36,506 nt of DNA from a virus (lineage: Duplodnaviria; Heunggongvirae; Uroviricota; Caudoviricetes), in the IMG/VR virus record IMGVR_UViG_2534681651_000007, positions 1 through 36,506 of that record; one strand, 5' to 3'. Both the position numbers and the translations under genes were made by a program. The notes under the pieces are model-generated. The model had not been told where the DNA came from, searched no databases, and was given only the letters and a program-made list of their open reading frames with translations. Positions 1-36,506 of this stretch are shown piece after piece (the first letter of the stretch is position 1; each line of letters opens with the position of its first letter).

Positions 1-1284
1 TTACTTCTTCGCCTCTGCAACCACTTTGCTACCCACGCCGCGGTTATTGTATTCCCACATGCGGTTGTAGTTAGTGTCATTCAGATTACGCTGTACTTCG
101 TCGTTATCATCAACGCTGCCGGTGTTACCCGCAAACGGACGATTGGAAATCACCGCATCGGCCCACGGTTTCGCCGTGTTAAAACCTTCGTTGATGGCAC
201 TATCACGGATCACCACCTGACCGTTGGTATTAGCATCAACATCCAGCGAGCGGCCCAGTTGCGCCACGCCATCACCGGAAGCATTGAAACGGCTGTTTAC
301 GGCGAGGAAACCGTAATAGATGTTAGACAGCGTAGCCGGTGCAAACACATACGCTTCTTGCTGAGTACGTGAGTTCACCACGCGGAATTCGGTATTATCG
401 AACACCACTGCGCCGCGACCAGAAACGATATCCACATCCCCTTCAATGTAACTGTTGGTCACCAGAGTACGCGGCTGACGGTTGGTTTCCAGACGGTTTT
501 GCACACCACTGTTGGTGACAAAGAAGGTATTCTGACGACCGAGAATGTTGACGTTATTGATCTGCACTTTGTCGCCATCAGTACGCAGTGCCACCGCCGG
601 ATGGTTACCCGCATCTACGCTATCGCCCAGCGTGTTTTCGATGGTCAGGTTTTGCAGTTGCAGGCCATTGTTTTGTGACCAGAAGACCGCAGAGCAGAGA
701 ACGCCGATACTGTCGCTGCGTTTGCTCTGGCAGCTATCGTACATATACCACGCTGGTTTACCTGGCATATATTTGCCGCGCGGGTTGACGTCGTGACGCC
801 AGTCGGCAGGGCTCATGCCCCCATCAAGGGAAAGCCCAATCTTCACATCAATCGGTTTTTCACCTGTACCGTACAGAGTAATTCCACCCGGAGCGGCAGG
901 GACATACACCGTTCCCTGATACTCACCAGGCATCACGGCAATATACTGGCGCTTGTTGGTGCGCTTGATAATTGCCGCATCTACCGCCGCCTGAATCGTG
1001 GTATGCGTTACACCTTGAGTACCCGCCGGGCCGACAACAAAGTCAGGTTGCGCAGGCAGGGTAATCGGGGAAGGATTCCACGCTGCCGCACCTGGTGTCA
1101 GGGATGCAAAATAGTGTTGAGCATCGAAATTCTGCGCTTCTTTTGCCGACAGAATCGGGCGAGAAGAGGTACCAGGCGCGGTTTGATCAGAAGGACGTTG
1201 ATCGGGCGGTGTTGAGCTACAGGCGGTCAGCGTCACGCCAAAAGCCAATGCCAGCGCCAGACGGGAAACTGAAAATGTGTTCAC
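1..1284 (-). CDS. ybhC: Host outer-membrane lipoprotein YbhC (pectinesterase-like), the gene flanking the lambda attachment site
   Basis: Complete 427-aa ORF with lipoprotein signal (…GVTLTACSS); N-terminus matches recalled E. coli YbhC; lambda att core lies 47 bp beyond its start codon. Confidence 0.85.
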   Translation of the reverse strand: MNTFSVSRLALALAFGVTLTACSSTPPDQRPSDQTAPGTSSRPILSAKEAQNFDAQHYFASLTPGAAAWNPSPITLPAQPDFVVGPAGTQGVTHTTIQAAVDAAIIKRTNKRQYIAVMPGEYQGTVYVPAAPGGITLYGTGEKPIDVKIGLSLDGGMSPADWRHDVNPRGKYMPGKPAWYMYDSCQSKRSDSIGVLCSAVFWSQNNGLQLQNLTIENTLGDSVDAGNHPAVALRTDGDKVQINNVNILGRQNTFFVTNSGVQNRLETNRQPRTLVTNSYIEGDVDIVSGRGAVVFDNTEFRVVNSRTQQEAYVFAPATLSNIYYGFLAVNSRFNASGDGVAQLGRSLDVDANTNGQVVIRDSAINEGFNTAKPWADAVISNRPFAGNTGSVDDNDEVQRNLNDTNYNRMWEYNNRGVGSKVVAEAKK

Positions 1285-1418: not shown

Positions 1419-2489
1419 TTATTTGATTTCAATTTTGTCCCACTCCCTGCCTCTGTCATCACGATACTGTGATGCCATGGTGTCCGACTTATGCCCGAGA
1501 AGATGTTGAGCAAACTTATCGCTTATCTGCTTCTCATAGAGTCTTGCAGACAAACTGCGCAACTCGTGAAAGGTAGGCGGATCCCCTTCGAAGGAAAGAC
1601 CTGATGCTTTTCGTGCGCGCATAAAATACCTTGATACTGTGCCGGATGAAAGCGGTTCACGACGAGTAGATGCAATTATGGTTTCTCCGCCAAGAATCTC
1701 TTTGCATTTATCAAGTGTTTCCTTCATTGATATCCCGAGAGCATCAACATGCAATGTTGTAGGGATGGCAATTTTTACGCCTGTTTTGCTTTGCTCGACA
1801 TAAAGATATCCATCTACGATATCAGACCACTTCATTTCGCATAAATCACCAACTCGCTGCCCGGTAACAACAGCCAGTTCCATTGCAAGTCTGAGCCAAC
1901 ATGGTGATGATTCTGCTGCTTGATAAATTTTCAGGTATTCGTCAGCCGTAAGTCTTGATCTCCTTACCTCTGATTTTGCAGCGCGAGTGGCAGCGACCGG
2001 GTTTATTGTTATATGGCCTTCAGCTATTGCCTCTCGGAATGCATCGCTCAGTGTTGATCTGATTAACTTGGCTGACGCCGCCTTGCCCTCGTCTATGTAT
2101 CCATTGAGCATTGCCGCAATTTCTTTTGTGGTGATGTCTTCAAGTGGAGCATCAGGCAGCCCCCTCCTTATTGCTTTAATTTTGCTCATGTAATTTATGA
2201 GTGTCTTCTGCTTGATTCCTCTGCTGGCGAGGATTTTTTCGTAGCGATCAAGCCATGAATGTAACGTAACAGAATTATCACTGTTGATTCTCGCTGTCAG
2301 AGGCTTGTGTTTGTGTCCTGAAAATAACTCAATGTTGGCCTGTATTGCTTCAGTGATTGCTATCCTCCTGTCTCGGCCTAATCCAAACTCTTTACCCGTC
2401 CTTGGGTCCCTGTAGCAGTAATATCCATTGTTTCTTATATAAAGATTAGGGGGTAAATCCCGGCGCTCATGACTTCGCCTTCTTCCCAT
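1419..2489 (-). CDS. int: Tyrosine integrase, lambda Int type
   Basis: 356-aa ORF beginning MGRRRSHERRDLPPNLYIRNNGYYCYRDPRTGKEFGLGRDRR, ending ...RDDRGREWDKIEIK, as recalled for lambda Int; adjacent to att P' arm. Confidence 0.97.
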   Translation of the reverse strand: MGRRRSHERRDLPPNLYIRNNGYYCYRDPRTGKEFGLGRDRRIAITEAIQANIELFSGHKHKPLTARINSDNSVTLHSWLDRYEKILASRGIKQKTLINYMSKIKAIRRGLPDAPLEDITTKEIAAMLNGYIDEGKAASAKLIRSTLSDAFREAIAEGHITINPVAATRAAKSEVRRSRLTADEYLKIYQAAESSPCWLRLAMELAVVTGQRVGDLCEMKWSDIVDGYLYVEQSKTGVKIAIPTTLHVDALGISMKETLDKCKEILGGETIIASTRREPLSSGTVSRYFMRARKASGLSFEGDPPTFHELRSLSARLYEKQISDKFAQHLLGHKSDTMASQYRDDRGREWDKIEIK

Positions 2490-8309: not shown

Positions 8310-8341
8310 AAAGGAAAGAAAAAAGGGGCGAATGCCCCTTA
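8310..8341 (-). terminator. Terminator after the repressor gene (stem GGGGC/GCCCC, loop GAAT/ATTC, T6 on the minus strand)
   Basis: Minus strand reads AAGGGGCATTCGCCCCTTTTTT; hairpin includes the repressor stop codon. Confidence 0.6.
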
Positions 8342-8989
8342 TGGAAGGTTTGCTATTTTTGCATCGACAACTACACCGATGATTTTGCAGTTCCCGTTGA
8401 TCTCAATCATCGGATATTGTGGGTTAAGTGGTTTTAGAAACCTTCTGCCAGCATCAATAACTAACTTCTTGAAAGTTGCCTCGTTTTCTCCTTCGAGCTT
8501 TGCCACTACCAGCTTCCCATTACGAGGTTCTACTTCAGGATCGACTAGTATTATCATCCCTTCCGGGATGCTAAGACCGGCTGGAGCCGTCATCGAATCA
8601 CCCTTTACGTCCAGCCAAAACGAATCTTCTGAACAATCTACGGTTGTATCGTACCAGTTATCTATTGCACGCTTATGATATGGCTCTACAGCTTCCATCC
8701 AACATCCTGCGCTTACCCAACTAATTAGAGGATACGAACCTCTTGGATCATGCCTGCTGTGATAGGCAATGTTTGAAAGACTATCTTCTCCTTTCAACAA
8801 GTAATCAGGGGAGCACTGCAAAGCCTTGGCTAAGGCCAATAGGTTTTCGCCATTGGGCTCAGTTTCAGAACGCTCCCATTGGGAAATAGCAACATTAGAC
8901 ACGCCAACCATCTTGCCAAGGGCAGCCTGCCTAATTTTGAGTTCTTTTCTGCGAGCGCGAATACGCTCACCCATCAGTTGTGTATTCAT
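8339..8989 (-). CDS. c2: Prophage repressor, P22 C2 type (LexA-like autocleaving CI family)
   Basis: 216-aa ORF MNTQLMGERIRARRKELKIRQAALGKMVGVSNVAISQWERSETEPNGENLLALAKALQCSPDYLL... matching recalled P22 c2; HTH N-domain and S24-like C-domain; divergent from cro. Confidence 0.95.
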   Translation of the reverse strand: MNTQLMGERIRARRKELKIRQAALGKMVGVSNVAISQWERSETEPNGENLLALAKALQCSPDYLLKGEDSLSNIAYHSRHDPRGSYPLISWVSAGCWMEAVEPYHKRAIDNWYDTTVDCSEDSFWLDVKGDSMTAPAGLSIPEGMIILVDPEVEPRNGKLVVAKLEGENEATFKKLVIDAGRRFLKPLNPQYPMIEINGNCKIIGVVVDAKIANLP

Positions 8990-17128: not shown

Positions 17129-17659
17129 ATGAAGTACCCAACAGTTATTGTCAATGGTGTGTCCGTTCGTGTTGATGAGGATGGACGCTACAACTTAAAC
17201 GATCTCCATGCAGCAGCAGTTGCAAATGGAGAGGCTACAGAGCAACAGCGCCCAAGCCAGTTTTTGCGTAGCGCGCAGATAAAACGCTTCATAAAAGCAC
17301 TGGAGGCCAAAGTGCAAAAAAGCACTTTGGAACAAATTCAATCACTTAAAATAATCAAAGGTGGTGCGGAACCAGGTGTGTGGGGTGTTGAACTTCTGGC
17401 AATCAGATATGCAGCATGGATTAAGCCGGAATTTGAAATCGAAGTTTATGAAGTTTTCAAAACGGTTGTCCGCCTCGGCGTTGGCGCAATGTCCCGTCTG
17501 AATAGAATCGATCACATCATCAATACTGAAACCAAAGCGATAAGCCAGTGCGCAAGCCAAATGGCGAAGTGGGGCGTTGGTGGGCGAAAAAGATTGCTTC
17601 ATGTTGCACGTGAGAGAGCGGCAAATGAAGTGCAAATGTATTTGCCCGGAATGGTGTGA
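17129..17659 (+). CDS. KilA-N domain protein (176 aa)
   Basis: N-terminal region (VIVNGVSVRVDEDGRYNLNDLHAAA...QRPSQFLRSAQIKRFIKALE...) resembles the KilA-N DNA-binding domain as I recall it; family assignment is from memory. Confidence 0.6.
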   Translation: MKYPTVIVNGVSVRVDEDGRYNLNDLHAAAVANGEATEQQRPSQFLRSAQIKRFIKALEAKVQKSTLEQIQSLKIIKGGAEPGVWGVELLAIRYAAWIKPEFEIEVYEVFKTVVRLGVGAMSRLNRIDHIINTETKAISQCASQMAKWGVGGRKRLLHVARERAANEVQMYLPGMV

Positions 17660-29141: not shown

Positions 29142-30548
29142 ATGGCTACTTGGCAAGGATCAAATGGCGGATTGTTGGCTGGTATCGGTGGTGTCAACTC
29201 AAACGCTCCGAGCGTAAATGACATCGGCAATACGCTTCAGCTTATCAGGCAGAACAATGATATTGAGCGTTCAGGCGCCAATAATCTTGGGTTGACTGCT
29301 TTGCAAGGTCTTTCAGGTATTGCGGGTGTTTTTCAGCAGGAAAAGCAGGCTCAGCGGCAGAAAGAATTTCAGCAGGCATACGCTAATGCTTATGCGTCTG
29401 GTGATCGCGGTGCTTTGCGTCAGTTGGCTACTCAATATCCAGACCAGATTGAATCTGTTCGTAAAGGCATGGGATTCATTGATGAAGACCAGCGCAATTC
29501 TATCGGCACCTTAGCGGCTGGCGCACGCCTTGCATCATCGTCTCCAGAAGCAATGCAATCATGGCTGCAAAACAACGCCAAGGAACTGGCGCGCGTCGGT
29601 GTTGATCCTAACAACGTTGCTCAGATGTATCAGCAGAATCCCTCAGGATTTGGTGAGTTTGTTGATCACCTTGGAATGGCCGCGCTTGGTCCGATTGATT
29701 ACTTCAATGTTCAGGACAAGATGGCTGGTCGTGAGATTGATCGCGGAAAACTTGCAGAGACAATCCGCAGCAATCAGGCTGGTGAAGCACTTCAGGCGAG
29801 AGGGCAAAACCTTTCCTATCAGTCAGCAATGACTGGGCACAATATCGCAGCACAACGCTTGGCTCTGGATCAGCAAGAGTTCGGGTTTAAGATGCAGCAA
29901 GCGCAGGAAAAGGCTCAGCAGTTGATTAGCGAAGCACCTAAGCTGTCAGTAAACATGGAAAAAGGCATCGAGACGGCTGTAAACAATGCCACAGCATCAT
30001 CAAACTCAGCCAATTCTATGAGTGCGCTTGCTCAACAGTTCAGAGCAGAAAAACCAACGACAGGTTTGTTCGGTAACGCACAGAACATGTTCGCAAAACT
30101 TACCGGAAGCGATACGACATTGCGTGATTTGCGCATCCGACAAAATGCCCTTGTTAACAGTCAGGTTCTTAAATTCCTACCTCCCGGCCCCGCAACGGAT
30201 AAAGACGTTGAGATCGTTCGGCAGGGTGCGCCAACTGACATGGATAATCCTGAGACGGTCGCAAGATGGCTTGATGCGATGGCAAACCTTGAGCGACGAA
30301 ACGCGCAGTTTAATGAGTTTAAAGCCGAGTGGATGAGCGCGAATGGCAACCCTGGACAATCGCGTAATGGCGGTCAGATATTGGGGTTGGATGTTAAAAA
30401 AGGTGAATCATTGGGGAGTGCTGTTAAGAGGTATATGTCAATGAATACTGACGCAGCGCCAGCACAAGATTCGACTCCTTCAGGAGAATCACGGAATCAG
30501 GTTGGAGCATATACCTCAAAATCAGGCATTCAATTTACGGTGGAATGA
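29142..30548 (+). CDS. Ejection protein (P22 gp20-like)
   Basis: 468 aa; order and size match P22 gp20. Confidence 0.8.
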
Positions 30549-32392
30549 TGAAAGTAACTGCAAACGGTAAGACATTTACCTTCCCTGATGGTACGAGCAC
30601 GGAAGATATTGGCACCGCCATTGATGAGTATTTTGCTGGTCAGGCTGTTCAGCAAAAAACTGTCCGCCAGGATAGCAATGAACCAGTACGTGAAGAACCA
30701 TCATTGATGCAACAAGCTGGCGATTGGCTCACTGGTGGTCAAAGTGCAGGGCAAATTGCAGAACAGGCTGGTCGCGGTCTGGTAAACATACCATTCGACG
30801 TATTACAGGGCGGCGCAAGTCTGATTAATGCAATCAGCCAGGGGCTTGGTGGCCCCAAGGTTTTGGATGATGTTTATCGTCCAGTAGACAGACCGACAGA
30901 CCACTACGCTCAAGCTGGAGAAACAATTGGCGGGTATTTAGTTCCAGGAGTTGGAACGGCAGGAAGCATGGCTATTGGATCACTGGCAGAGGCCGCAAAT
31001 CAGAAAGGCGATTTCGCACAAAATGCAGCTAAAAATGCCGGAGTTAACCTCGCCGCTCAGGGTGTTCTTTCCGCAGCAGCAAAGGGAATAGGACGTGGAA
31101 TAACGGCTATAAAAGGCGATATTGCGCCAGAAGTAGCGAAAAAAATTGCCACATCAGAATCGATGGGCGTGACACCTATGACATCTGATGTAATCCCGCC
31201 GAAAAATGCTTTCACTCGTGGCCTTACTCAGGATGCCGAGGGGGCTTTGCTCGGGACAGGATCAAAGCGAGCGGAGCAATATGCAACGCGTAGTAAGCTG
31301 GTAAGTAATTACTTTGACCGTTTTGGTGAGTACAACCCTGATGATGTGGTGAAATCTCTGACCTCCACGTTAAGGGGGCGGAAGGATGCCGCTGGCGCTG
31401 TTATCAATGACGTCACCAATAAAATGGGTAATGCCGCAGTTGATACCACAAATACCATGAATGCTCTGAATACAGCGATCGCAAGACAGGAACGGCTTGG
31501 GACGTCTGCCAATCAAAGCCTGCTTACATCCTTGCGTAACCTACGTGAAGAATTAGCAAACCCTGCAACTGATTTGGATGTTACGTTTGATCTCTTGCGT
31601 CAGCACAGAACGGCATTTAGATCTAATGTTCAGGGAGATGCTATGGTCTTCCCCAACCAGGCAAAAGCAGCTACCAATATGGTAGAGAATGCAATGTCAA
31701 AAGACCTTCGTAACGCAGTTGCTAAAAAACTCGGTGCATCAGACGCAGCAAAATACCTTAAAGCAAATTCCGATTATGCAAACGTTTATAATAAGGTACT
31801 TAATAAAAACATTGCTAACAAGCTCAACAAGGCAAGCAGTGAAGCCAGTCCTGAACTTATAAATACCGTTGTATTAAGCAGAAAACCATCTGACGTGAAA
31901 CGAATCTGGAGCGCATTGGATAATAAAGGGAAAGATGCTATGCGTGCAGCTTACGTCAGCAAAATAGCGGAAAAGGCCGGTGACTCTCCAGCCAAGTTCA
32001 TCACTGAAGTTAATAAGCTGAAATCTCAGTCAGGCGGTGAAATTTACAACACTATTTTTTCTAGAAAGCACATGAAAGAGCTTGATGCTCTTCATGAAGT
32101 TCTACAGCAAACAGCAAGGTCAGACACCGCAAATGTAGTAACTCAGACTGGGCAATCGCAAGCCAACAGGATAAGGACGATTGGCGCAACTGCGACTCTT
32201 GGCGTATCAATGGGGATTGAGGCTGGTTTCGGTGCAATGATGCGCTTGTATGAGTCCAAAGCAGCAAGAAATGCTCTCTTACGTCTGGCAAACACCAAAG
32301 CAGGAACACCAGCCTATGAAAGAGCGCTAAATAATGCTGCAAATGCGATACGCCCTATACTTTCAAGCCAAATTACAGCAGAACAGCAATAA
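30545..32392 (+). CDS. Ejection protein (P22 gp16-like)
   Basis: 615 aa; order and size match P22 gp16; overlapping start with the preceding gene. Confidence 0.8.
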
Positions 32393-32406: not shown

Positions 32407-32892
32407 CTATCTGATATTACTGCTACTGTTGCATGTTACCGTGTTTCCAAATCCTGAATTGCAGTTTGTATATGTGTCAACGCGTGTTGGGTAAGGTTGA
32501 GTTATAACAGGCTGGCGCGCTTTTTGCTCGATCGCTTGCATTGTGTTTACAGCCTGATAATTCAATAAAGCCTGCTGGAATGCTTGGCTTTGTGCTATTT
32601 GTTGTGCTTGTTCTTGGCTTTGTAATTGAACATAAAGATTCTGAAGCTCAAGTCTTGCCTGTGCGTCACTTATCTTGCCTTCATCGACACCTTGCCCGAG
32701 CATCTTCGCAGCAAGGACATACAGCTTAGGGGTTGGTGCTGATGCCATGCGTGAGTCGTTCTTCACACTGGCATCAAGGCAATTCGCCATGTCGCTAAGT
32801 CTTGGATAACGTTGCTCGCAACTTGCCTGATAGTCGCTAACCTTTGCACACCCTGCCAGCAGAAGCGGGATAATTAACAGTGATTTTTTCAT
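32407..32892 (-). CDS. Lipoprotein (161 aa from the ATG at 32892; signal MKKSLLIIPLLLAGC), Gln-rich mature domain
   Basis: Lipobox LAGC after a hydrophobic signal; AAGGAGAG Shine-Dalgarno; reverse-oriented in the slot where P22 has sieA. Confidence 0.8.
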   Translation of the reverse strand: MKKSLLIIPLLLAGCAKVSDYQASCEQRYPRLSDMANCLDASVKNDSRMASAPTPKLYVLAAKMLGQGVDEGKISDAQARLELQNLYVQLQSQEQAQQIAQSQAFQQALLNYQAVNTMQAIEQKARQPVITQPYPTRVDTYTNCNSGFGNTVTCNSSSNIR

Positions 32893-33026
32893 ATGATTAA
32901 CTCTCCTTATCTTTGCCATCATGGCACTGTTGGGTGTAAATGAGTTATTAACTCAACTGACAATATCTTCACGGAAATACTTTTTATTATTAAGATCTTT
33001 CTGATTCTAACAAAACGGAAAGTAAT

Positions 33027-33446
33027 ATGAAGAGGATTATCGGCGTCGTTGCTGGCGCTATATTGTTATCTGGGTGTGCAACTATTGTTGGTGACGAAAC
33101 GCAGCTTGTGCAAGTGAACAGCAATCCTTCCGGTGCGAGCTTTAAAGTAAAAGACGAATCAGGCGTGATTGTTGCGCAAGGCAAGACCCCGCAAGGAGTA
33201 ACTCTTGCCAAGTCAGATGGTAGTTATTTTGGCAAAAAGAGCTATCAGATCACTATGGAAAAGGATGGGTACGAGCCAGTAACCTTGCCAATCAAAGCCA
33301 ATGCTAATGGTTGGTATATTGGTGGAAACCTTGTGTTTGGTGGGTTAATTGGTTGGCTTGCTGTAGATCCATTTAATGGTGGGATGTATACCTTGAAGCC
33401 AAAAGAGGCAAATGCATCCCTTATACCGTCCACAAAGCAAGACTAA
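33027..33446 (+). CDS. Lipoprotein with PEGA-like domain (139 aa; signal MKRIIGVVAGAILLSGC)
   Basis: Lipobox LSGC; motif NSNPSGASFKVKDESG...GKTP resembles the PEGA domain; Gly-rich hydrophobic C-terminal segment; followed by a strong terminator. Confidence 0.8.
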   Translation: MKRIIGVVAGAILLSGCATIVGDETQLVQVNSNPSGASFKVKDESGVIVAQGKTPQGVTLAKSDGSYFGKKSYQITMEKDGYEPVTLPIKANANGWYIGGNLVFGGLIGWLAVDPFNGGMYTLKPKEANASLIPSTKQD

Positions 33447-33454
33447 TAAATAGG

Positions 33455-33477
33455 ACCCACCTTCAGGTGGGTTTTTT
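33455..33477 (+). terminator. Rho-independent terminator (ACCCACC-TTCA-GGTGGGT followed by T6); the mnt stop codon lies in its loop
   Basis: Read directly. Confidence 0.8.
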
Positions 33478-33714
33478 GTACAAATCCTTCAGCGTATCAA
33501 ACACCATCTTCTTAACAAGTTCGGACTGCTCATCAGCGATGCGTTCTGCATCGTCTCGATAGCCTGAAATTTTGGATGGCTTTGATACAGCATCAGTAAC
33601 TATCTGAACTAATTCTGAATTAAGAGAGCGGCCATTGGATTTGGCTCGCTGTTTTAGTTTTTCCTTTAATTCGTAAGGTAGCCGCAGATTAAATTGCGGG
33701 TCATCTCTTCCCAT
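33463..33714 (-). CDS. mnt: Mnt repressor (ribbon-helix-helix, P22 immI type)
   Basis: 83-aa ORF MGRDDPQFNLRLPYELKEKLKQRAKSNGRSLNSELVQIVTDAVSKPSKISGYRDDAERIADEQSELVKKMVFDTLKDLYKKPT, close to recalled P22 Mnt. Confidence 0.9.
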   Translation of the reverse strand: MGRDDPQFNLRLPYELKEKLKQRAKSNGRSLNSELVQIVTDAVSKPSKISGYRDDAERIADEQSELVKKMVFDTLKDLYKKPT

Positions 33715-33777
33715 TCTTGATGCCTCGCTTTTGTGAGTGGATCGGCATCTTATTATCTGCTGGTTGCATCCTCAATA

Positions 33778-33792
33778 AGACCACTGTGGTCT
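33778..33792. promoter_or_regulatory. Candidate Mnt operator: perfect 15-bp palindrome AGACCACTGTGGTCT between mnt and the tailspike gene
   Basis: Palindrome read directly; half-site resembles the P22 Omnt dyad (GGTCCAC-G-GTGGACC as recalled). Confidence 0.55.
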
Positions 33793-33860
33793 CTTTATTT
33801 GATTAATAATGCATCACTGCGGCAATGCTGCGGCGATTCCTTGTATCTGGAGCAAATTAA

Positions 33861-36506
33861 ATGACAGACATTACAGCCAATGTTGTAGTGAGTATGCCTT
33901 CGCAACTCTTCACTATGGCGCGTTCTTTTAAAGCGGTTGCCAATGGCAAAATTTATATCGGTAAAATTGACACTGACCCTGTAAATCCTGAAAACCAGAT
34001 TCAGGTTTATGTAGAGAACGAAGATGGCTCTCATGCTCCTGTTTCGCAACCAATCATCATTAACGCTGCTGGATATCCGGTATATAACGGACAGATTGCC
34101 AAGTTCGTAACTGTGCAAGGCCATTCTATGGCTGTTTATGATGCGTATGGTGCACAGCAGTTCTATTTTCCTAATGTGCTGAAGTATGACCCGGATCAGT
34201 TTAAACAAAAAGTATTATCAAATGATATGCTAAATATGTCTCCTCTTTATTTTGGAGCTAAGGGGGATGGGATTAGCGATGATACTGAAGCATTTGTCGC
34301 GTTGGAAATGGATATAAAAAATAGGGTTATTGATTTAAGTGGAAGAGCATTTTTTGTTACTAAAAGTTTTATTAAAAATAGCTATATAAATGGTTCTTTT
34401 ATTCGTGATAGCAGTAAACGAATTGCGATTGGTGATCTTAAAGTAAGAGATAAAAGAGAGCCATTGATATTTTCCGGAATGCCAAAAGTATATAACACCA
34501 GACACACGTTGCGCAGAACTGAAGGTGCGGGTGGTTTATATGCGGTCATTCAGGGGTGTTGTTATGATGAAATTAACGACAAGATTTTTACTTTATCATC
34601 TACCACAGCATACGGTTATTGCATTAATGCCTTTGACGTGACGAATTCTGGTGAACTAGGAAGATACGACAGAACTCGTTCTACTGAACTTGGGCATCAG
34701 GGGCTTGGATTGCATCATAATCCTGATGGTACTGTCGTGCTGTGGACATCGAAGCCTTATGGAACTGATGCCGCCAATCAATGTATTTCGATGGAAAATA
34801 TATTGAGTTACACAGGGACAACTAACGGAGTATCTGAAGGTTTTATCACCTGGAAGTTGTTCCCCTATGATGGAATGAGCGCAAGCTCTACTCCAACTGT
34901 ATCAAGTTGTGAAAACTATCTCCTTGCCAAGAAAATTTCATCGGATGGAATTACCTGCACGGTTCGTGTTTTCGACATAGTCAGCATGTGGAATAACAGA
35001 GCTCATAAAACTGATTATAGTGATGATTATTTAGTTGAGTTTAGCTATCAAAAACCATCACAAGAAGCATTTACCCAATCAATTGCTTGCGATGGGGCAT
35101 ACATTTACATACTTGAGTCACATATGTATGTTGGCATGACTAATTATATTTACGTATTTGACTTAACAGGCAGGTTTATTGAGCGAGTAGATATTTCAAC
35201 TGTTGGTGATGATGAAGCAAAATCTGATAGTACAGGAACTCCTGTTTATAAAGAGCCTGAGTCCCTAACAGTAATTAGAACGGAGAGTGGGTATGTTTTA
35301 ACGCTGGGGATATGCACATATAAAGGAGTTGCTGAGAACGGGAAAAATGTATATCTGTTTGATATAGGCAGGTCTGGTTCGGTAGTGCAAAGCAAAGCAA
35401 GCCGTTCTGTATCCAGTAATACTGGTCTTCATAGTTCTGGCTCCCCGGAGTTCAAATATGGAGTAAGGGAGTACAATGATACTTTTCACTGGACAGTTTG
35501 GCCAACAAGAAAGGGTATTCAAACTAACCGGGATAACCCTATATTGTTCCTTGATGGCGGAATTACTGGTGGAATGCAGTTAGCTTCAAATGGTACGGAA
35601 GGGATGAGCAACTCATGGGTTTCTCGGCATCAGTCAGATACCGCAGAAGGACCAAGAGCAATAATGTATAAATCTCGTTCTGGTGTTGTATCAACTGATA
35701 ATTTTGGAGCCCTGCAGACAGGGGATGTATTGGGTACTCATGTATGGGCCGGTGATACGGGTAGTAAGGCTGTGCAATGCGCAAGCATTAAATGCGTCAC
35801 AAGAGGCAATCCTTCCGGAGAAAATATCCCAGTTGCTTTTTACTTTGGAACTATGGGAGAGAGTGACGGCTTGCGTGACAGATGGGTATTAACAGAATTA
35901 GGTCATTTTCGACCATCAGGTTCAAATCTCTATGATATTGGTACACAGTCGAATACTGTCAGAAATCTGTACATCAATAATAGTCCAATTGTAACCAGCG
36001 ACAGAAATTACAAGCAGGATGAAACTTCATTATCTGATGCAGAACTGCGGGTTGGAATGGCTATTTACCCGCTGATAAAAAAATTCAGAATGAAGGATGC
36101 TGTAAAAGAAAAAGGCTTATTAGCGCGTGAGCATATCGGTGTAATTGCGCAAGATATACAATCCATCTTTGCATCGGCAGGGCTTGATGCATTTTCTTAT
36201 GGGGTTCTTTGTTATGAAGAGTGGAATGACGAGTTCGAGAAAGTCTATGCAACAAGAAATGTGACCAGGAAAATTTTGGTTGATGAAGAGTCTGGTCAAT
36301 ATGATGAAATCATAGAGGAAGAAGAGTATGAAACGGGTGAGGTAAGGCTACTTGTAGAATCAGGAAGGAAATTATCAGTGCGCTATGACGAGTTAATGTT
36401 TCTGGCAATGAGCGCACTATATCATCGCCATGAACAGGATATTGCCAATATCACATCAAAGATTAATGATCTGGAAAGATTATTAAAATTAACACTAAAT
36501 GGTTGA
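33861..36506 (+). CDS. Tailspike: P22 gp9-like N-terminal head-binding domain, beta-helix (pectin-lyase-like) receptor domain, C-terminal intramolecular-chaperone (self-cleaving) domain
   Basis: N-terminal about 120 aa ([43 protein letters not shown]...) nearly identical to recalled P22 gp9; motif [16 protein letters not shown] typical of beta-helix glycosidases; near the C-terminus TSDRNYK (Ser and Lys five residues apart) then LSDAELR...IYPLIK, resembling the S74-type chaperone domain. Confidence 0.88.

Follow-up and report, generated by a model that had tools for sequence, protein, structure and literature searches.

The 36,506-nt stretch of viral DNA analysed here (IMG/VR record IMGVR_UViG_2534681651_000007; hereafter the window) is an E. 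coli prophage of P22-like (Lederbergvirus) type, in which the repressor gene mnt stands beside the tailspike gene, and a perfect palindrome in the spacer between the two genes is very probably the cognate operator of Mnt. The arc, sar and ant genes of the P22 immI region are absent. The locus may thus be a maintained remnant of the immI control region, dispensable for lysogeny and acting locally on its own transcription and on transcription directed at the tailspike gene, a reading that we hold to be evenly balanced. The orphan mnt-tailspike layout is common and has already been described; this is no new kind of system, and it is a question left open by the literature that is sharpened here. 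What we add is the operator in its orphan context, the co-variation of Gln6 Mnt with AAGACCAC and of His6 Mnt with AGGTCCAC, the finding that ant phages carrying this operator exist, and the decay of the P_ant promoter beside purifying selection on mnt. The features of the locus, in window coordinates, are these:

33463-33714, minus strand: mnt, full length, 83 amino acids (aa), with Pfam and PDB matches
33742-33770, plus strand: decayed positional homologue of P22 P_ant, TCGGCA (33742-33747), 17-nt spacer, TGCATC (33765-33770)
33747-33775, minus strand: positional homologue of P22 P_mnt, -35 TTGAGG (33775-33770), 17-nt spacer, -10 TAAGAT (33752-33747)
33777-33792, no strand: putative Mnt operator AAGACCAC-T-GTGGTCT, perfect palindrome at 33778-33792 with its centre at 33785
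33793-33860, plus strand: junction and tailspike leader, about 20 bp (33793-33812) lineage-specific, then conserved leader and ribosome-binding site (RBS)
33861-36506, plus strand: tailspike gene, divergent from mnt, with Head_binding (E 2.7e-66) and Peptidase_S74 domains (Pfam)

Orphan mnt and its predicted operator

An earlier reading made from the letters of the sequence (hereafter the sequence-only reading) had proposed that mnt is retained, and matches to Pfam, PDB and P22 confirm a complete 83-aa Mnt at 33463-33714 (-). Its N-terminal ribbon-helix-helix DNA-binding domain matches Pfam Arc (PF03869, E 2.8e-22, residues 3-50) and its C-terminal tetramerisation coiled coil matches Repressor_Mnt (PF11423, E 2.2e-18, residues 53-80), with corresponding matches to PDB 1MNT (E 2.8e-34, residues 2-76) and to the tetramerisation domain 1QEY (E 3e-12). 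Over 83 aa the protein is 75.9% identical to P22 Mnt. The differences include residues of the DNA-binding domain: the N-terminus MGRDDPQFNLRLPY defines what we call the Gln6 allele, the recognition strand reads RDDPQFNLRL in place of RDDPHFNFRM, and Gln6, Leu9, Leu11 and Tyr14 replace P22 His6, Phe9, Met11 and Met14. Residue 6 of Mnt reportedly helps to set operator specificity, according to classic P22 genetics from the Sauer, Susskind and Youderian laboratories. The gene is itself a mosaic. Codons 61-83 show 94-100% nucleotide identity with the mnt genes of P22, epsilon34 and E. coli His6-type phages, and the C-terminal domain is 91-97% identical in amino acids to theirs, while codons 1-48 are only 56-72% identical; this pattern argues that the DNA-binding domain and the operator were swapped as a unit. 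Homologues of this Mnt are labelled 'partition protein ATPase' in RefSeq records and in PHROG 795, which, on an 83-aa ribbon-helix-helix repressor, looks like a propagated mis-annotation.

The 15-bp perfect palindrome that had been noticed in the gap between mnt and the tailspike gene lies at 33778-33792 (AGACCACTGTGGTCT), with two seven-base arms around a single central base (7+1+7) and a flanking A at 33777. Inspection of the sequence and a pattern search both confirmed it; a repeat search skipped it because its arms are too short. Five 7+1+7 palindromes occur in the window, compared with 2.2 +/- 1.6 in shuffled sequences, the chance of finding one in a shuffled 146-bp spacer is 0.008, and the palindrome by itself is weak evidence for function. 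That it is non-random is indicated by its homology to P22 O_mnt, its uniqueness in the window and its conservation in 93 IMG/VR contigs. A pattern search allowing up to 3 mismatches found no second copy of the operator in the window, nor in the complete genome of Gally, a near-identical prophage of E. coli LF82.

In the annotated P22 sequence the mnt start is followed by the P_ant -35 hexamer TTGACA, 17 nt that contain O_arc, the -10 hexamer TATATT, O_mnt and then arc; P_mnt (TTGAGA-17-TATCAT) runs on the opposite strand with its -35 one base from O_mnt. The window retains much of this geometry. Upstream of mnt there is a dyad-symmetric operator whose distance from the mnt start is that of O_mnt in P22; a single base separates it from the -35 of the leftward P_mnt homologue, and it covers the start point of the former P_ant. 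P22 O_mnt is annotated as AGGTCCAC-G-GTGGACCT, and its core CCAC-N-GTGG is identical in the window; the half-site changes, G to A at -7 and T to A at -5, are mirrored in the other half. It is this match of position and core, together with the protein-operator co-variation and the independent arc-ant contigs with the same site described below, that leads us to assign the palindrome as the Mnt operator. We infer from the sequence that Mnt would bind it specifically, and likewise what binding would do. Gene identity, operator homology, co-variation, the loss of arc and ant and sequence conservation are matters of observation or computation.

The sequence-only reading had also stated that arc and ant are absent and that the next gene is the tailspike gene, and both points stand. 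When P22 Arc and Ant were compared with the whole window by tblastn, nothing but mnt itself was matched, and no antirepressor domain was found by Pfam in ten other open reading frames (ORFs) of the early region. Neither sar RNA nor any other Rfam family was matched anywhere in the window, and the arc-ant junction that encodes sar is missing. Thus none of the three features that lie downstream of the operator in a P22-type immI region (arc, ant and sar) was found here, and the gene that follows is the tailspike gene at 33861-36506 (+). An ant gene elsewhere in this genome was rejected as a candidate, there being no tblastn or Pfam match and no second operator. The KilA-N protein encoded at 17129-17659 was likewise considered as an antirepressor under the operator, but it is the usual regulator in the Rha position and has no operator nearby. 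The possibility raised earlier of an ant homologue under the same operator elsewhere therefore fails within this genome, but holds for other phages, in which the identical operator is found on a P_ant-arc-ant arrangement.

Set against P22 immI as a whole, the locus occupies the same place between the injection genes and the tailspike gene, encodes an Mnt of the same length and domains (76% identical), and has an operator of the same size, core and distance from both the mnt start and the P_mnt -35, followed by the same tailspike leader. It differs in lacking arc, sar and ant, in two symmetric half-site positions, in Mnt residues 6, 9, 11 and 14, and in the decay of the P_ant hexamers. P22 also needs Mnt to keep ant off, whereas lysogeny of the near-identical Gally prophage proceeds without Mnt.

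Protein-operator co-variation and maintenance among relatives

Eighty IMG/VR loci were gathered by Mnt similarity and pooled with GenBank phages and the window. Every locus with a Gln6 N-terminus (68 of 68) has a AAGACCAC-type site and lacks arc and ant, whereas every locus with a His6 N-terminus (18 of 18) keeps ant. Fourteen of the 18 His6 loci retain the P22-type mnt-arc spacer, all with a AGGTCCAC-type site, and in the other four the control region has been replaced. The window carries the pairing of a Gln6-type recognition strand with a AAGACCAC-N-GTGGTC operator. Its mnt-tailspike spacer of 146 bp (33715-33860) falls within the range of 136-149 bp seen in the orphan layout of 58 of the 68 Gln6 loci. 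In 10 of the 68 (L025, L036, L052-L056, L061, L065 and L070) an AT-rich insert of about 280 bp sits after a vestigial tailspike start, ATGACAGATATTATAAATAGG; it holds a short ORF starting MNRRLFFKTLASL, and the head-binding domain begins about 425 bp from mnt.

A scan of IMG/VR for the exact operator pattern ATAAGACCACNGTGGTC returned 93 contigs, 78 of them with the orphan layout. Six others (L091, L121, L126, L152, L167 and L168) carry TTGACA-17-CATTAT followed by ATAAGACCACGGTGGTCT, arc and an antirepressor with P22_AR_N and P22_AR_C domains, and L159 has the same control region and arc, its locus ending after arc. All seven share an identical 22-nt stretch, TCAATAAGACCACGGTGGTCTC, with the window and encode the N-terminus ARDDPQFNLRM, again with Gln6. 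They differ from the window in having a strong P_ant ahead of the operator, arc and P22-type antirepressor, and in their Mnt-like protein, which begins MARDDPQFNLRM and whose C-terminal domain is longer, unrelated and not matched by Repressor_Mnt; one locus at least (L121) sits in a lambdoid siphophage tail region. Since an identical half-site goes with an identical recognition strand, the pairing holds in two otherwise unrelated contexts, one of which has a real P_ant. In a third Mnt lineage (Sf101 and VSe13), whose N-terminus reads YDEAQFHLRL, the place of the operator is taken by another inverted repeat, TACC-N5-GGTA, and mnt is again an orphan beside a tailspike gene.

Two further contigs, L099 (7650-7745) and L131 (1390-1490, oriented), show three closely spaced (A/G)GACCAC-N-GTG(G/A)TCC sites upstream of a longer ribbon-helix-helix protein starting MSREDPQFKLRMP, a multi-operator relative that uses the same recognition code in an unrelated context. 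The immI-like module of the Salmonella phage SPN3UB was examined as a cognate ant phage and set aside, its N-terminus and control region being unrelated.

The closest relatives of the module are Gally (OV696608) and phage vB_EcoP-720R6, in which it is essentially the same: nucleotide identity is 97% over 1.2 kb, the Mnt proteins are identical, both lipoprotein-like genes stand upstream as well, and the only operator difference is the centre base, A instead of T. In Gally the module is already deposited with annotation. They differ from the window in the receptor-binding part of the tailspike, the match breaking off some 340 bp inside the gene. The Salmonella phages ST64T, ST104, L, SE1 and ST160 have the same architecture of mnt, 136-149-bp spacer and tailspike gene, the same Gln6 N-terminus, the operator TAAGACCAC-C-GTGGTCTTA and hexamers at positions homologous to those of P_mnt. 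Their nucleotide identity to the window is 82%, the junction after the operator is 11-13 bp shorter, and the upstream moron gene and the receptor-binding part of the tailspike are different, as is the middle of Mnt (90-92% amino-acid identity, 70% for L and ST64T).

Sequence comparison shows that orphan mnt is under purifying selection. Between the window gene and the orphan mnt of Salmonella phage ST160 the ratio of non-synonymous to synonymous substitution rates (dN/dS) is 0.126 at a dS of 0.38 (17 synonymous and 9 non-synonymous changes). The ORF is intact in 66 of the 68 Gln6 loci, and the first 19 residues of Mnt are invariant, even in phage L with an Mnt that is 70% identical overall. 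When 26 distinct orphan spacers were aligned, no column in the left 80 nt varied more than the operator centre, where each of the four bases occurs, and the 14 half-site columns held only four singleton changes. Among relatives, indels and sequence replacement start directly to the right of the operator, which therefore behaves as the edge of an mnt cassette. The module, at 97-99% identity and at least 80% coverage, is present in 108 of 5426 complete E. coli genomes.

What bound Mnt may control

In P22, bound Mnt shuts off rightward transcription that starts at or crosses the operator, and P_mnt is not occluded. On the reading that we prefer, a P22-type immI region has lost arc, sar and ant and its control half is what the window keeps; Mnt tetramers would occupy the single operator in P22 geometry relative to P_mnt. 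Bound Mnt would most likely act only locally, setting its own level and, in the lysogen, damping rightward transcription that reaches the tailspike gene as a residue or by read-through. Weak promoters in the spacer are one conceivable source of such transcripts, and read-through past a terminator after the upstream lipoprotein-like gene, which is expressed from the prophage, is another. Regulation of the tailspike gene in particular is the more doubtful part of this proposal, and we hold it somewhat less likely than not.

Related layouts have been discussed before. The ant morons of ST64T, ST104 and Para1 contain only mnt and one unknown gene, and Mnt and Arc may influence late-promoter transcription into the tailspike gene (Villafane et al. 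2008, PMC2629481); phage L has the same orphan-mnt layout (Zaworski et al. 2020, PMC8022706). The sequence-only reading had spoken of a rewired immI circuit. Its anatomy is right and its palindrome is very probably the Mnt operator, but the phrase overstates the case for a layout that is common and already published.

The most direct data come from Gally, which has been studied by RNA sequencing (RNA-seq) and with a delta-mnt mutant (Misson et al. 2023, PMC9928086). In lysogeny broth (LB), mnt and the tailspike gene gave about 13 and 15 normalised counts, which is background (median 15.6) (PMC9928086). In macrophages the increase seen for mnt and the tailspike gene was shared by both lipoprotein-like genes and by the gene that follows the tailspike gene, and the upstream injection-protein genes stayed at background (PMC9928086). 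As the tailspike gene is transcribed while the injection genes are silent, its transcription is independent of the late operon and starts inside the region. The delta-mnt::Kan lysogen could be built (PMC9928086), so Mnt is dispensable for maintaining the Gally prophage. The RNA-seq data thus show a tailspike gene transcribed independently of the late operon, but not tight repression by Mnt.

Several observations weigh against the proposal of local control. The promoters were scored with a position weight matrix (PWM) that recovers both P_ant and P_mnt of P22; in the window the promoter calls rest on positional homology only. No promoter on either strand of the spacer scored above random sequence, and a consensus scan found no promoter-like site in its 146 bp. 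The leftward TTGAGG-17-TAAGAT, a putative P_mnt by homology only, scores 7.8, a value reached by 36% of random 146-mers. The best weak rightward candidate, TTTTGT-16-TATTAT (-10 at 33751-33756), is conserved in the Salmonella type and statistically unremarkable. A strong rightward promoter of the P_ant type was not found under the operator: the P_ant equivalent scores 15.6 in P22 and 12.3 in the arc-ant phages that share this operator, but 5.6 in L, 1.9 in ST160 and -0.7 in the window. The suggestion that Mnt gates a promoter at this site accordingly has little evidence behind it, and with the hexamers at -0.7 and the spacer promoters no better than random, the target of repression is hypothetical. 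Self-regulation fares no better in this respect, because an Mnt bound in P22 geometry does not occlude P_mnt and so has no established mechanism for it once P_ant is gone. Both it and the gating of read-through into the tailspike gene, as suggested in the sequence-only reading, stay plausible.

The comparative and expression data add to these points. Operator conservation between the E. coli and Salmonella copies is not significant by itself at their divergence, and 2 of the 68 orphan alleles (L065 and L070) have a stop at codon 53. Transcripts of Gally mnt go up 40-fold in macrophages and those of the tailspike gene about 20-fold (PMC9928086), where tight repression would predict otherwise; the whole low-GC right end rises too, and global de-silencing could explain the increase of both genes. 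In the sole assay reported, macrophage survival, the delta-mnt lysogen behaved like the wild type and thus showed no phenotype (PMC9928086). As a separate observation, the product of the two truncated alleles would be a ribbon-helix-helix domain without the tetramerisation domain, and L065 also has an operator half-site change, AAGATCAC.

On an alternative that the sequence-only reading had not considered, orphan Mnt might instead act in trans, repressing the P_ant of incoming phages with the same operator and so stopping prophage induction, with the cis operator serving autoregulation alone. This would account for purifying selection on mnt without a cis target, and the Mnt of a P22 prophage does keep ant off (PMC2629481, PMC8022706). 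Suitable phages exist, with the identical operator on a strong P_ant (TTGACA-17-CATTAT) that drives arc and a P22-type antirepressor; the tail genes of L121 are 83% identical to those of Salmonella lambdoid siphophages, so its host should be a related enterobacterium. We nevertheless consider protection in trans unlikely. Neither the 5426 complete E. coli genomes nor the GenBank phages yielded an ant phage with the same operator by megablast: the phage matches were partial, to Erwinia and Salmonella phages only, and the match in E. coli genomes was limited to the Ant C-terminal domain. A host search with the Mnt-like protein against genome contigs gave only three irrelevant or weak matches. 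All 18 ant-bearing relatives gathered by Mnt similarity are His6, and those with a P22-type control region have the other operator. Moreover, mnt is at background in LB-grown Gally lysogens, and the conserved half-sites of the cis operator would be left unexplained.

A functionless remnant, the possibility raised by the phage L authors themselves (PMC8022706), is improbable to the same degree. Here mnt and its operator would be leftovers that look conserved because the module is young and spread by recombination with the head-binding region of the tailspike gene. The module is clearly mosaic, P_ant decays stepwise from P22 through L and ST160 to the window, and the nonsense alleles, the background expression of mnt in LB and the normal macrophage survival of delta-mnt all fit this picture. 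Against it stand a dN/dS of 0.13 at a dS of 0.38 between the E. coli and Salmonella orphan alleles, and an ORF intact in 66 of 68 loci. Alleles whose overall identity is no more than 70% do not differ in the recognition N-terminus, the operator is conserved in its half-sites but not at its centre base, and orphan layouts occur in at least three Mnt lineages. Induction of Gally mnt by 40-fold under a physiological condition, in macrophages, is also unexpected of a remnant without function. Were the locus inert after all, it would simply add another mosaic remnant to those known from the variable 'ant moron' that P22-like phages carry.

A role of the palindrome as an RNA hairpin (a terminator or attenuator of rightward transcripts, or the end of a leftward one) rather than as a protein site is very improbable: a terminator scan does list a 6-bp stem and 3-nt loop followed by CTTTATTTGA, and in some E. 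coli relatives the palindrome is followed by 7-8 consecutive T, but the fold is weak (-6.4 kcal/mol, z -0.96, with 33 of 200 shuffles as good), Salmonella-type spacers keep the palindrome without the T-tract, and the loop base varies while the stem, which matches the O_mnt core, is invariant and shows no compensatory changes. The terminator reading was rejected on the weak hairpin and the unconserved T-tract.

Taking the relatives together, we tentatively propose that Gln6 Mnt and AAGACCAC-N-GTGGTCT could form a separate immI specificity class, a two-part regulator that stands by itself and that selection has kept, after the loss of ant, in prophages of E. coli and Salmonella numbering in the hundreds, either for host-associated control of the tailspike or for anti-antirepressor immunity; we would place this slightly below an even chance. 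Should the Mnt-operator pair prove functional, it would clearly exemplify the reuse of a phage regulatory cassette beyond the life of its original target, it would account for the presence of a 'maintenance' repressor in about 2% of complete E. coli genomes, and it may tie tailspike expression, or resistance to antirepressor cross-induction, to conditions within the host. The His6/Gln6 co-variation further supplies naturally occurring specificity variants of a ribbon-helix-helix protein that is a classic model.

Prophage setting and neighbouring features

The genes and sites around the locus are listed below. The pectinesterase and integrase genes at the left end suggest a prophage junction adjoining ybhC.

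1-1284, minus strand: ybhC-like pectinesterase ORF, left end
1419-2489, minus strand: lambda-type integrase with arm-binding domain, left end
8339-8989: C2-type repressor
30545-32392: gene-16-like injection protein, last of the late genes
32407-32922, minus strand: lipoprotein-like ORF, one of the PHROG 6067/6823 pair, part of the 'ant moron'
33027-33446, plus strand: lipoprotein-like ORF, divergent partner of 32407-32922, part of the 'ant moron'
33453-33478, both strands: bidirectional intrinsic terminator over the mnt stop codon, stem 33455-33472 (-14.5 kcal/mol, z -2.5)

The variable region between the injection-protein genes and the tailspike gene is the 'ant moron' of Casjens and colleagues (PMC2629481). 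In the window it includes the two lipoprotein-like ORFs, which belong to PHROG 6067 and 6823 and give a weak match to the PEGA domain. Their Gally homologues, GALLYPH_13 and GALLYPH_14, are the top-transcribed genes of that region if the C2 repressor is set aside, and their induction in macrophages is strong; Gally was nevertheless scored as free of morons by its authors, the lipoprotein-like genes lying just under their 5-fold cut-off (PMC9928086). A second perfect 7+1+7 palindrome, TGAGTTATTAACTCA at 32941-32955, lies in the 104-bp divergent spacer between the two ORFs and may be a regulatory site for these prophage-expressed genes. The terminator at 33453-33478 closes both the upstream plus-strand lipoprotein-like gene and mnt, and the homologous site in epsilon34 carries a terminator annotation.

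On the other side of the operator, the tailspike gene starts 68 bp past the palindrome and encodes a P22-type head-binding domain, a low-GC receptor-binding part and a C-terminal Peptidase_S74 intramolecular chaperone. The GC fraction of the receptor-binding part is 0.33-0.37 (34200-35400), within a low-GC right end of 0.33-0.45 overall. The leader and RBS are common to P22 gene 9, and the leader contains a direct repeat, CTGCGGCAAT/CTGCGGCGAT, at 33817-33837. Within the conserved leader (33811-33860) a 7-bp hairpin stands directly before the tailspike RBS, and in phage CUS-3 the stretch homologous to this leader carries the annotation 'boundary sequence'.

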